From a virus (taxonomy: Duplodnaviria > Heunggongvirae > Uroviricota > Caudoviricetes): a stretch of DNA of 25,134 bases. The DNA is taken from positions 1 through 25,134 of IMG/VR virus record IMGVR_UViG_2737471840_000004. The stretch is one strand, 5' to 3'. Below, piece after piece: positions 4,467-6,462 of the stretch. The translations under genes and the position numbers were made by a program. The notes beneath the pieces were generated by a model. It was not told where the DNA came from, did not search any database, and saw only the letters and a program-made list of their open reading frames with translations. Each line of letters begins with the position of its first letter. The stretch's first letter is position 1.

Positions 4467-5155
4467 GCTGCACCATCACCTTTCACTTTCATCAATGTCA
4501 GGTTTCCGCAAAATACGGCACCAGTGTCGATATACTGCTGATTCCAGAATGTCTTCGGGCTTTTCACCGGAGTGTGACCAAAGATAAAACGATCTGCGCC
4601 CGAAATTTCGCCACCAATATCATCCATCGAATCACTGATACGCTCGCGCGCCCAGACAACGTTGAAAAGCGGCACCTCCTTACCGAATTGGTATTCATTA
4701 TCCGGATAGTCGGCATGGGCTATAACGATAGTTTCTTGCCCGGTGTTCAACTCAATGATATAGGGCAGACGCTTTACCAGCTCCACCAGCGCCCAGGCTA
4801 ATATTTCCTGATCAGTGTCCAGCATGAAGAACCATTGTCCGCCATTCATTAGCCAGTTATTCACGTTGCCATCTGGACTTAACGCATCAATCATCAGCCG
4901 CTCATGGTTCCCCATCACTGCCCTGAACCAGGGCATCTGCAATAGTTCCAGACATTCGACATTTTCAGTACCGCGATCGATAAGGTCGCCGACCGATATC
5001 AGTAAATCCTGCGCCGGGTCAAAATCCACACGATGGAGTTCGGACATCAGTCTGGTGTAGCAACCATGCAGATCACCAACAACCCAGACATTCCTGTATT
5101 TGGTACCGTCGATACGGTGATAAATTGTGGGTGCCATCATGTATTCTTCAGCCAT
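4463..5155 (-). CDS. serine/threonine protein phosphatase, lambda-PPase (calcineurin-like) family
   Basis: 230-aa ORF with GDLHG, GDLIDRG and GNHE metallophosphoesterase motifs in canonical order. Confidence 0.9.
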
Positions 5156-5763
5156 TCTTTAAGAGTCATCTGCGGAATGCCTCCCATTTTCCCGCATGAA
5201 ACAACGTCAATCTGTTCACGCGCAGACTGGAATAACAAAGGCAGGTGACTTAGATTTTTTGGCGTGCCGCCGGAGTGAACGCGTGGTTCTTGTGTAGCGT
5301 CAACGCCCACCAGGGCGACATGTTTGAATCCGATATGGAAAGCCAGGTTCAGAGCGCCATATGCACTATTGCCGCTGGCAATTTCATTCTCATCTTCGCA
5401 AAGTCCGAAATGTGCGGACCAGCGCCACGCCCACCACTCGGGAGAATTCGTATTTTTTGGCTCCATGCCACGTTCAGCCACACGACGGAAGCACAGAACG
5501 CCGTCTCTGACTTCACGTTCTTTAACATCGGGTAGTGCCATGCAATAACAAACACCACGGCGACGGCGGCCACGACCAACGCGCCGCATATTGTCTGGCG
5601 ATGGATCAAGTGTGAAAAAATAAGAAGCGCGGTTCAGCCAGTCGATGGCCCCATTGACCGCTATAATCGGCACTCCGCGCGGCGCAACAAAGTTTGCGGC
5701 GCTTGGGCCACTGCCGACGATAATAACGCGATCACTGCCTCTAAATTTATTCTTGGGAAACAT
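5137..5763 (-). CDS. Rossmann-like protein, DUF115/MptE-like (tentative), paralog 1
   Basis: 208-aa ORF; VIIVGSGPS...IIAVNGAID...[12 protein letters not shown]...VALVGVD; Arg-rich insert [11 protein letters not shown]; AGGAG upstream of ATG 5763. Confidence 0.6.
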
Positions 5764-6323
5764 TGAATTGCACTGCTCCTACTTGCATTCAAAATATGTA
5801 AATCTGCGTGTTTTTTGCGGGTATCCAGGAACTGCTGTTGCCATTTTGAAATAGACACCTGCGTTGGATTCCGTAGGGCTTGAGGGTGCGCGCCATGCCA
5901 ATGAAGGCCGTTTTGCAGAGAACAGTCATAGCCGACTAATACAACTACTTCAGCCCCTGATTCAGCAGCCAGACTGATAGCCTGCGCGCCGCTATTTACC
6001 CCTTCCGCCGGTCCACAATATCGCCTGTACTCCAACGAAAATGATTTCGCCGCCGCCAGGTTGGCTGTCACTTTGCGGAATTTCCCTCCCGGTATGGTGG
6101 ATCCGTATTGCTTCCACCATGACAAATCACCGGCGTATAAGGCATAAATGTCATCGAACATCTGCCAGGAATTGTTAACCGCGATGATTGAACAGCCAGT
6201 TTTTTCTATAGCAGCACAGTCCTCACGAGTGAGTGACGGACCGCTACCGACACAAAAAATAGTCCTAGTCGCCCTGGGTGGTATGTTCATTCTCAGCTGC
6301 AAATTCAGCCTCCAGGCGAGCAT
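5661..6323 (-). CDS. Rossmann-like protein, DUF115/MptE-like (tentative), paralog 2
   Basis: 220-aa ORF; FCVGSGPS...IIAVNNS...NSGAQAISLA...VVLVGYD aligns with paralog 1; start uncertain (ATG 6323 or 6290, neither with a good SD); overlaps paralog 1 by 103 nt. Confidence 0.6.
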   Translation of the reverse strand: MLAWRLNLQLRMNIPPRATRTIFCVGSGPSLTREDCAAIEKTGCSIIAVNNSWQMFDDIYALYAGDLSWWKQYGSTIPGGKFRKVTANLAAAKSFSLEYRRYCGPAEGVNSGAQAISLAAESGAEVVVLVGYDCSLQNGLHWHGAHPQALRNPTQVSISKWQQQFLDTRKKHADLHILNASRSSAIQCFPRINLEAVIALLSSAVAQAPQTLLRRAECRL

Positions 6324-6462
6324 TCATTTCAGCGATTACCGGGTCCACTACAGCATCTGCTTCCTGTTCATTACGCGGCATGATCGATGCCAGCGATTCA
6401 TAATTAGCCTTGGATGACACGATTATTCTCCCGATGTTAATGTGCGCTGTATCAAAGAACAC
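6265..6462 (-). CDS. hypothetical small acidic protein (start uncertain)
   Basis: 65-aa ORF in track beginning at a GTG; 3' end overlaps the start of paralog 2 in another frame. Could be a leader or coupling ORF. Confidence 0.25.
   Translation of the reverse strand: MFFDTAHINIGRIIVSSKANYESLASIMPRNEQEADAVVDPVIAEMNARLEAEFAAENEHTTQGD

Follow-up and report, generated by a model that had tools for sequence, protein, structure and literature searches.

Two tandem genes with paralogous products overlap by 103 nt in the stretch of phage DNA analyzed here (the window; 25,134 nucleotides), and the question raised by this locus is whether so long an overlap between genes on the same strand reflects genuine dual coding, coupled translation, programmed recoding, or an error of sequencing or annotation. 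The window is a P1-like phage genome, with 99.8% identity to RCS47 and 97.4% to P1, and the locus belongs to the operon pmgN-pmgO-pmgP-ppp-pmgQ, which is repressed by C1. The P1 record AF234172 mapped gaplessly (window coordinate = locus + 3499), and the principal features are as follows.

6464 to 6480, plus strand: Oppp (formerly Op83), the C1 repressor operator that controls the operon, mapped from AF234172; sequence TATGCACTAATTAATTT
6265 to 6462, minus strand: 65-aa version of pmgN from GTG 6462, which is the P7 hdmA model
6265 to 6420, minus strand: pmgN, 51 aa from the probable start GTG 6420, the length in the P1 record (phrog_2350, E 2.4e-37)
6309 to 6313, minus strand: GGAGG, predicted Shine-Dalgarno sequence for pmgO, within pmgN (dG -9.3, spacer 5 to 6 nt)
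5661 to 6323, minus strand: pmgO, deposited model, ATG 6323, 220 aa
5661 to 6302, minus strand: pmgO, proposed start TTG 6302, 213 aa, based on Shine-Dalgarno strength and conservation in relatives
5776 to 5780, minus strand: AGGAG, predicted Shine-Dalgarno sequence for pmgP (dG -6.5, 12-nt spacer)
5661 to 5763, minus strand: pmgO/pmgP overlap, 103 nt
5137 to 5763, minus strand: pmgP, 208 aa, pmgO paralog with a predicted Maf/MptE-like fold (P1 record, AlphaFold, Foldseek)
4463 to 5155, minus strand: ppp, lambda-type Ser/Thr phosphatase, the gene after pmgP
3765 to 4466, minus strand: pmgQ, glycosyltransferase-like, the last gene of the operon (phrog_1962, E 1.7e-127)

The P1 (AF234172, NC_005856) and P7 (AF503408) records contain the same gene models, including the 103-nt pmgO/pmgP overlap and a 59-nt pmgN/pmgO overlap; the P7 counterparts of pmgN, pmgO, and pmgP are named hdmA, hdmB, and hdmC. 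The pmgO/pmgP overlap is real but ordinary, its junction having already been annotated in P1, and the value of the result lies in annotation and evolution, not in discovery.

A preliminary description of the locus, made from the letters of the window, had placed three open reading frames on the minus strand, at 5661 to 6323 (220 aa), 5137 to 5763 (208 aa), and 6265 to 6462 (65 aa), and all three are present there. The 103-nt overlap that it reported between tandem paralogs (5661 to 5763) was likewise borne out. The same junction was found in 85 of 87 P1-like loci from independent assemblies, and the overlap in the remaining two is 70 nt. These 87 loci, retrieved by a scan of viral contigs with the PmgO alignment, are nearly identical, so that they count as replication and are of no use for divergence. 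Across eight lineages, down to 42% PmgO identity, the pmgP ATG lies at the identical place, within conserved [Q/K]-Cys codons of pmgO, and the overlap with this ATG is kept at 42 to 73% protein identity. The position of the pmgO stop varies, and the overlap accordingly measures 49 (L099, the shortest natural overlap), 70 (four lineages), 94, 103, or 109 nt. From the in-frame stop upstream to the PmgP GSGPS motif, ATG 5763 is the sole canonical start. The conserved PmgO domain extends into the overlap (phrog_4603 spans residues 25 to 202, and the profile alignment described below reaches residue 202), and PmgO F189 and L194 are nearly invariant. Inside the overlap lie strand beta1 and the GSGPS motif of PmgP (residues 12 to 21) and the last strand and helix of PmgO (residues 187 to 206). 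Orthologous loci without an overlap had been named beforehand as the sign of an artefact; the loci of the enterobacterial clade all overlap, by 49 to 109 nt. In relatives beyond this clade, the two genes overlap by 13 nt, are fused in frame, or lie apart. Judged by sequence comparison, this is a genuine co-directional dual-coding pair, in which both reading frames are intact and the junction is shared by independent sequences.

The paralogy of the two proteins is real, as had been proposed, though distant. Pairwise BLASTP aligned only the N-terminal GSGPS...IIAVN segment (E 0.004); profile-profile comparison with hhalign aligned PmgO residues 16 to 202 with PmgP residues 7 to 208, which is near end-to-end (probability 97.5%, E 7.9e-12). 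AlphaFold modeled PmgO with a pLDDT of 85 (residues 1 to 16 of the 220-aa model disordered; last helix at residues 194 to 206) and PmgP with a pLDDT of 92.7 (residues 1 to 10 of low confidence; strand beta1 at residues 12 to 16). For both models the best Foldseek match in the PDB was the Maf glycosyltransferase 5mu5 (probability 1.0, TM 0.55 on the query), and the next matches were the MptE HPPK 8sd5, Cst-I/II, and ST6GalNAc. PmgO and PmgP are thus predicted from the models to share a Maf/MptE-like glycosyltransferase fold, with an N-terminal G-S-G-P-S loop of the nucleotide-binding type. The closest known proteins are the Maf flagellin glycosyltransferases, Cst-I/II of the GT42 sialyltransferases, and members of PF01973, the MptE-like family; compared with these, PmgO and PmgP are much smaller, with one domain of about 200 aa, and their scores against Pfam PF01973 (23.4 bits for PmgO and 20.9 bits for PmgP) fall below the gathering threshold of 34.6. 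Some homologs carry a precomputed PF01973 match. The putative enzymatic assignment is drawn solely from fold and profile similarity, and the name "alpha-2,3-sialyltransferase" in RefSeq and PHROGs is a transferred annotation. The P1 and P7 records give the products as "putative morphogenetic function" and state neither the paralogy nor the fold. pmgO, pmgP, and pmgQ are dispensable for P1 plaque formation (PMC10695390), and pmgO and pmgP are unmentioned in the P1 virion proteome paper (PMC9024508).

The junction is very probably a genuine out-of-frame overlap of two co-directional genes of the C1-repressed early operon of P1, and its origin and translation may be pictured as follows. PmgO and PmgP would each arise from an ordinary initiation event of their own on a shared mRNA, pmgO at TTG 6302 behind the GGAGG within pmgN and pmgP at ATG 5763 behind an AGGAG supplied by Ser-Arg-Ser codons of pmgO. 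Comparison with relatives suggests that a flexible leader of about 11 residues was added to the N terminus of PmgP in the enterobacterial lineage and that its codons lie over those for the last strand and helix of PmgO. Beyond them, the pmgO frame would stay open across the stretch of pmgP that codes for GSGPS and close at the first stop permitted by the pmgP codons, so that the 103 nt would be a passive by-product. Selection in both frames would be limited to about the first 48 nt, with the remaining 55 nt encoding a nonconserved PmgO tail, and tight packing would keep pmgO, pmgP, and pmgQ coinherited and coexpressed.

The start sites were considered individually. The absence of a convincing Shine-Dalgarno sequence for pmgO, asserted in the preliminary description, holds for its ATG candidates 6323 and 6290 and fails for TTG 6302, which is in frame with pmgO and follows GGAGG (6309 to 6313) by about 5 to 6 nt. 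Among all start-like triplets of this strand, this TTG ranks within the top 1.5% by Shine-Dalgarno dG (-9.3 kcal/mol). GGAG(G/A) with TTG is also present in the relatives L085 and L103, and in L104 it occurs two codons after the called ATG. From the sequence, TTG 6302 is most likely the start of pmgO. The P1 and P7 records, in contrast, start pmgO at an ATG lacking a Shine-Dalgarno sequence, and the reference start is probably off by 7 codons. A +1 shift from pmgN into pmgO was considered and rejected, as the pmgN stop lacks a shift-prone site and the strong Shine-Dalgarno sequence with TTG accounts for pmgO initiation.

Upstream, the small frame at the junction does exist, but probably as a 51-aa rather than a 65-aa gene. 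GTG 6420 is preceded by GGGAGA (dG -7.4), whereas GTG 6462 has no Shine-Dalgarno sequence (dG +0.7) and abuts the C1 operator; the probable pmgN start is therefore GTG 6420. Small open reading frames homologous to pmgN are present in L085, L099, L103, and L104. The AGGAG before pmgP, described earlier as good, is present, but its 12-nt distance from the ATG is longer than optimal. It is written by Ser-Arg-Ser codons of pmgO, of which R182 is invariant. A stronger site, AGGAGG (-10.3), precedes pmgP in L099, L103, and L105, and in L092 the site is nearly absent (dG -4.1).

An alternative is that pmgP, and pmgO as well, are translated only by ribosomes arriving from the upstream gene, through reinitiation or opening of the mRNA. 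The operon is packed with overlaps throughout (38 to 59, 103, 19 or 4, and 4 nt, the pmgP/ppp overlap being 19 nt as annotated and 4 nt [ATGA] if ppp starts at ATG 5140). Such strict coupling would also fit the suboptimal spacing of the pmgP Shine-Dalgarno sequence and its near absence in L092, and subunits of complexes are overrepresented among overlapping gene pairs (PMC10666635). However, termination-reinitiation needs a stop and a start within a few nucleotides of each other, and its efficiency collapses within about 20 nt from stop to start (PMC10666635). At these junctions the upstream gene's stop follows the start by 100 nt (pmgP start to pmgO stop) and by 35 nt (TTG 6302 to pmgN stop). 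Furthermore, the predicted folding of the two start regions is weaker than that of shuffled sequences (z +1.3 and +2.3), so neither start is hidden in a stable structure that upstream ribosomes would have to open. The pmgP frame is -1 relative to pmgO, the frame relation of an ATGA overlap, and the junction shares this relation (length 1 modulo 3) and the coexpression of the partners with the short ATGA/TAATG reinitiation overlaps (PMC10666635). The ppp/pmgQ junction is of that type, as is pmgP/ppp if ppp starts at 5140, whereas the distance between stop and start in pmgO/pmgP is far outside the reinitiation range. Because the stop lies 100 nt beyond the start, pmgP initiation is most likely de novo, inside the upstream frame. 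Obligatory coupling is thus unlikely, and the earlier suggestion of coupling or reinitiation survives only loosely, in that ribosomes translating pmgO may give some help to pmgP.

With separate initiation as the preferred reading, the overlap was divided into two parts by substitution pattern.

5716 to 5763, minus strand: part A of the overlap, 48 nt, constrained in both frames (substitution pattern, eight lineages)
5661 to 5715, minus strand: part B of the overlap, coding for the PmgP GSGPS motif and following residues and for the PmgO tail and stop (pmgP-only pattern)

Part A encodes PmgO residues 187 to 203 (the last strand and the beginning of the last helix) in one frame and PmgP residues 1 to 16 in the other. 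In eight lineages, its pmgP third positions vary at 0.36 versus 0.58 to 0.61 elsewhere (p 0.001), and its pmgO third positions vary at 0.30 versus 0.61 upstream (p 0.0002). The pattern over the three codon positions in part B (0.19/0.17/0.61) matches that in pmgP-only sequence (0.18/0.11/0.58; p 0.99). In this analysis of eight related sequences over short segments of 16 to 22 codons, overlap nt 1 to 48 are under selection in both frames, and nt 49 to 103 evolve as if they coded for pmgP only. By this pattern, the PmgO tail over part B is unconstrained. In the AlphaFold model, PmgO residues 207 to 220 have a pLDDT of 55 to 70, and the last 14 residues of PmgO are probably disordered. When synonymous pmgP codons were resampled, the pmgO stop fell at a median of 103 nt (5 to 95% range, 79 to 130), which indicates that the length of the overlap is passive.

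Were the tail (residues ~204 to 220) functional, for example as a peptide docking on PmgP, the full 103-nt overlap would be selected. Some form of tail does occur in all enterobacterial lineages, and short tails are also found on some PmgO homologs without a downstream pmgP. Its length beyond the helix, however, ranges from 0 to about 20 residues between lineages and its sequence is not conserved, its substitution pattern is that of pmgP-only coding, its pLDDT is low, and the simulation reproduces its length without selection. A functional tail is therefore quite improbable.

Programmed -1 frameshifting is a further alternative. In the frame of pmgO there is one slippery heptamer within the overlap.

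5742 to 5748, minus strand: A_AAT_TTA heptamer in the pmgO frame, judged to be a chance occurrence

At this site some ribosomes translating pmgO could enter pmgP and make a PmgO-PmgP fusion like the natural in-frame fusion protein P0048. The heptamer fits X_XXY_YYZ, the -1 frame is the pmgP frame, the heptamer is present in all 85 P1-type loci, and other tandem fusions are known besides P0048. E. coli dnaX and the phage lambda G/GT tail chaperone pair are programmed -1 frameshift sites, and they likewise have overlapping frames in a -1 relation with an X_XXY_YYZ heptamer in the upstream frame. In contrast to those systems, the pmgO heptamer is not conserved: it is missing in every diverged lineage that keeps the overlap (AATCTGG in L085/L086 and in the L103/L104/L105 type; other non-slippery letters in L099 and L092), and L087, the only one with an A-rich run, differs from A_AAT_TTA. 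A stimulatory structure is also absent; the sequence after the heptamer forms no stem or pseudoknot (MFE -20.4 versus a shuffle mean of -25.1, z +1.31), and an Rfam search gave no match. The downstream frame differs as well, pmgP having its own conserved ATG and Shine-Dalgarno sequence with a complete domain right after them. By chance (64/16384 per position), a heptamer of this kind is expected in about 13% of 34-codon overlaps. Programmed recoding, raised in the preliminary description, is thus very improbable. It is equally hard to credit that P1 makes three products, namely PmgO, PmgP, and a fused two-domain enzyme, with the overlap as a lineage-specific recoding device.

Most annotated co-directional overlaps of more than 60 bp in prokaryotic genomes are artefacts of sequencing frameshifts or of mis-set starts or stops. 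In the 338 cellular prokaryotic genomes surveyed by Palleja et al. (2008; PMC2478687), none of 715 cases proved to be a real co-directional overlap of this length. Relative to distant homologs, PmgO is extended at its 3' end and PmgP at its 5' end, and the overlap is often eliminated by gene callers, which shorten PmgP; many pipelines cut it to 173 to 186 aa, deleting the nucleotide-binding loop. Nevertheless, an artefact, as also suspected in the preliminary description, is hardly credible here, because the same junction recurs in 85 of 87 independent loci, diverged lineages keep the overlap with the same ATG, the shortened PmgP models lack strand beta1 and the invariant GSGPS and hence are themselves the artefact, and the conserved end of PmgO is encoded beyond the point where pmgP begins, with a natural minimum overlap of 49 nt.

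[quoted passage not shown] An overlap described in PMC2478687 is also co-directional, out of frame, and conserved across genera, with lineage-specific lengths (32 to 56 bp there; 49 to 109 nt here). The P1 overlap is about twice as long, joins paralogs, and is located in a phage operon, and constraint in both frames covers only about half of its length. It offers a model for the origin and persistence of such overlaps in which a short dually constrained stretch is followed by a tail whose length is passively set by the downstream codons.

It was also considered whether the Cys codon bearing the TG of the pmgP ATG arose by read-through of an ancestral ATGA stop; this origin was rejected because solo PmgO homologs share the C-F-P-R...L-E end.

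Natural fusions link the products of these genes. In addition to the in-frame O-P protein P0048, found on one contig, there are O-O' fusions (P0244 and P0246) and PmgP-PmgQ fusions (P0186 and P0274), and these suggest that the proteins act together. A PmgQ homolog adjoins PmgP in 11 of 14 diverse loci. PmgO, PmgP, and PmgQ of the model phage P1 thus appear to form a widespread, mobile, putative glycosyltransferase-like cassette, the members of which probably act together.

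When positions 5000-6600 of the window were searched with megablast, all 19 phage records matched with at least 80% query cover were P1-type, and identity with RCS47 was 99.8%, that with P1 and P7 97.4%. The alignment with P1 (AF234172) was gapless, so that the P1 annotation transfers directly to the window.

Features mapped from P1 (AF234172)
6493-6519, predicted promoter
6464-6480, C1 operator Oppp
6265-6420, minus strand, pmgN
5661-6323, minus strand, pmgO
5137-5763, minus strand, pmgP
4463-5155, minus strand, ppp
3765-4466, minus strand, pmgQ

Because this 103-nt overlap of pmgO and pmgP is found in the records of P1, RCS47, and P7, the overlap of tandem genes reported in the preliminary description is correct and already present in public annotation. 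The P7 record has the small ORF (pmgN) in its 65-aa version. PmgN is a small acidic protein confined to the P1-like group, and its gene houses the Shine-Dalgarno sequence (SD) and start of pmgO; pmgN scored as essential when the whole genome was screened by CRISPRi but as nonessential in a deletion survey (PMC10695390). Directly upstream of the operon, pmgM (6487-7065) is labeled "putative morphogenetic function," matches a VRR-NUC nuclease domain slightly under the Pfam threshold (21.3 bits versus 23.8), and is named a VRR-NUC protein or Holliday junction resolvase in RefSeq. The misspelling "norphogenetic" in the P1 pmgM note has passed into the RefSeq/NCBI product names that PmgO and PmgP homologs bear across many genomes.

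The overlap of pmgO and pmgP is a true, well-conserved long overlap. Among the loci fetched, the exact 103-nt junction was found in 85 of 87 P1-like sequences. Diverged relatives were retrieved through their proteins, and in eight lineages with PmgO identity of 42 to 100%, one of them represented by a Citrobacter rodentium prophage that belongs to another phage type, the pmgP ATG was in the identical position, formed in each case by the last base of a pmgO Gln or Lys codon and the TG of a Cys codon. With this conservation, the suggestion of a sequencing frameshift was not borne out. The position of the pmgO stop shifts among lineages, which makes the overlap variable in length.

Length of the pmgO/pmgP overlap in P1 and homologous loci
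L099, 49 nt
L085, L103, L104, and L105, 70 nt each
L092, 94 nt
P1 and the window, 103 nt
L087, 109 nt

Trimming either gene cannot remove the overlap. The pmgP ORF has no start codon ahead of ATG 5763, and no other canonical start precedes strand beta1 and the GSGPS loop, which is invariant. The conserved PmgO domain extends beyond the pmgP ATG: phrog_4603 spans residues 25 to 202 (of the 220-aa model from ATG 6323), the hhalign alignment likewise extends to residue 202, F189 and L194 are nearly invariant in the homolog alignment, and the last helix of the AlphaFold model comprises residues 194 to 206. Several gene callers cut PmgP to 173 to 186 aa, removing the nucleotide-binding loop. Such shortened proteins were seen at L086, L087, L092, and L104 and in clusters P0050, P0051, and P0158, with one cluster of 373 member sequences; the automatic shortening, which is frequent, avoids the overlap and deletes strand beta1 and the GSGPS loop.

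Comparison with orthologous loci, the proposed check, favored a real overlap in the eight lineages. Distant relatives had an overlap of 13 nt and a PmgP whose N-terminus is short (Zhongshania, L096), pmgO and pmgP fused in frame (L084/P0048), or the gene order O-Q-P without overlap (Sinomicrobium, L100). Because these more distant relatives show other arrangements, the long overlap characterizes the enterobacterial lineage, in which it was probably built by N-terminal extension of PmgP together with read-on of PmgO. Such overlaps are uncommon; no real co-directional overlap of >60 bp was found among 338 cellular prokaryotic genomes, the longest real one being holD/rimI, 32 to 56 bp (Palleja et al., PMC2478687).

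Variation per codon position (mean pairwise differences, eight lineages)
Upstream, pmgO only: pmgO position 3, 0.61; position 1, 0.43; position 2, 0.31
Overlap nt 1-48: pmgP 1/pmgO 3, 0.30; pmgP 2/pmgO 1, 0.17; pmgP 3/pmgO 2, 0.36
Overlap nt 49-102: pmgP 1/pmgO 3, 0.19; pmgP 2/pmgO 1, 0.17; pmgP 3/pmgO 2, 0.61
Downstream, pmgP only: pmgP position 1, 0.18; position 2, 0.11; position 3, 0.58

In the first 48 nt of the overlap, pmgP third positions were less variable than elsewhere (Mann-Whitney p 0.001) and pmgO third positions less variable than upstream (p 0.0002); the remainder matched sequence coding for pmgP alone (p 0.99). The PmgO tail varies in length and sequence among lineages, and residues 207 to 220 are of low confidence in the AlphaFold model. 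When synonymous codons were resampled with the PmgP protein kept, the median position of the pmgO-frame stop was 103 nt (5-95% range, 79 to 130). The 103-nt length is passive. In the models, flexible PmgP residues 1 to ~11 overlie the ordered end of PmgO, and the ordered PmgP start overlies the end of the last PmgO helix and the flexible PmgO tail; as modeled, the two proteins largely alternate ordered and flexible parts.

Translation of pmgO and pmgP probably starts independently, within the ORF that precedes each. The "good AGGAG" described before pmgP is present, but at 12 nt from the ATG and with a dG of -6.5 kcal/mol; the SD is AGGAGG in three relatives (dG -10.3), GGAG at 5 nt in L087, and almost lacking in L092. 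The statement that pmgO has no convincing SD holds for both ATG candidates but not for an in-frame TTG at 6302, which lies 6 nt after GGAGG (dG -9.3) and ranks in the top 1.5% of start-like triplets on the minus strand. Because of this strong SD, the presence of TTG and SD also in L085, L103, and L104, and the disorder and lack of conservation of residues 1 to 16 in the 220-aa model, we propose TTG 6302 as the predicted pmgO start, which makes PmgO 213 aa long and lets its gene overlap pmgN by 38 nt. At both start regions, predicted folding was less stable than in shuffled sequence (z +1.3 and +2.3), as suits open initiation sites and counter to a structure that would stimulate frameshifting.

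Reinitiation is disfavored because it needs a stop and a start only a few nucleotides apart (PMC10666635), whereas the distances are 100 nt (pmgO stop to pmgP start) and 35 nt (pmgN stop to TTG 6302). Programmed recoding, in which a -1 frameshift at A_AAT_TTA (5742-5748) carries pmgO ribosomes into the pmgP frame, is very improbable: the heptamer is in the pmgO frame and a slip there does enter that of pmgP, but it is conserved in no diverged lineage retaining the overlap, a chance heptamer of this form is expected in ~1/8 overlaps of equal length, folding gave no structure downstream, and an Rfam search returned nothing. Annotated in P1 already, the overlap needs no unusual mechanism. The annotated ppp start (ATG 5155) lacks an SD (dG -0.9) and gives a 19-nt overlap with pmgP. 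The pmgP stop (5137-5139) and a second in-frame ATG, at 5140, make up a classic ATGA, and ppp may be annotated 5 codons too early.

The tandem genes had been called paralogs, and profile and structure comparisons agree. Pairwise BLASTP aligned the N-terminal GSGPS...IIAVN segment alone (E 0.004), each protein matched the other's PHROG family, and Pfam MptE-like matches were weak. Profiles built on 16 PmgO and 17 PmgP homologs aligned over 164 columns, near end to end (hhalign probability 97.5%, E 7.9e-12). For both confident AlphaFold models (pLDDT 85 for PmgO and 92.7 for PmgP), the best solved structure match was the Maf flagellin glycosyltransferase 5mu5, followed by an MptE-type kinase and sialyltransferases. 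PmgO and PmgP are paralogs that diverged long ago and share a Maf/sialyltransferase-like fold. The name "alpha-2,3-sialyltransferase" on homologs is a propagated database label without experimental support.

The fused protein, used as query against 1.84 billion representative proteins, had 2133 relatives with E values of 0.001 or less, and the best matches included O-P (P0048), tandem O-type (P0244, P0246), and P-Q (P0186, P0274) fusions. A PmgQ homolog adjoins PmgP in 11 of 14 diverse loci, Bacteroidota included, among which ppp is limited to the P1 lineage. PmgO, PmgP, and PmgQ resemble a mobile cassette of three genes, into which ppp appears to have been inserted in the P1 lineage alone. 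The PHROG annotation of pmgQ, which travels with PmgP at L084, L092 to L096, L100, and L102, is "glycosyltransferase." We infer a putative glycosyltransferase-like cassette whose three members act together. P1 can form plaques without pmgO, pmgP, ppp, or pmgQ, as CRISPRi and deletion data show (PMC10695390).

In other phages, PmgO-like genes lie among head and tail genes and beside methyltransferases; this setting and a long C-terminal extension of the homolog P0194 (556 aa) are hints of virion glycosylation. At L091 (1236-1832) and on one JGI contig, the PmgO-like gene is between head-completion and tail-completion genes, and a collagen-like protein as well as methyltransferases adjoin such genes. 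The P0194 extension is without similarity to PmgO, PmgP, or PmgQ and looks Ig-like by eye.
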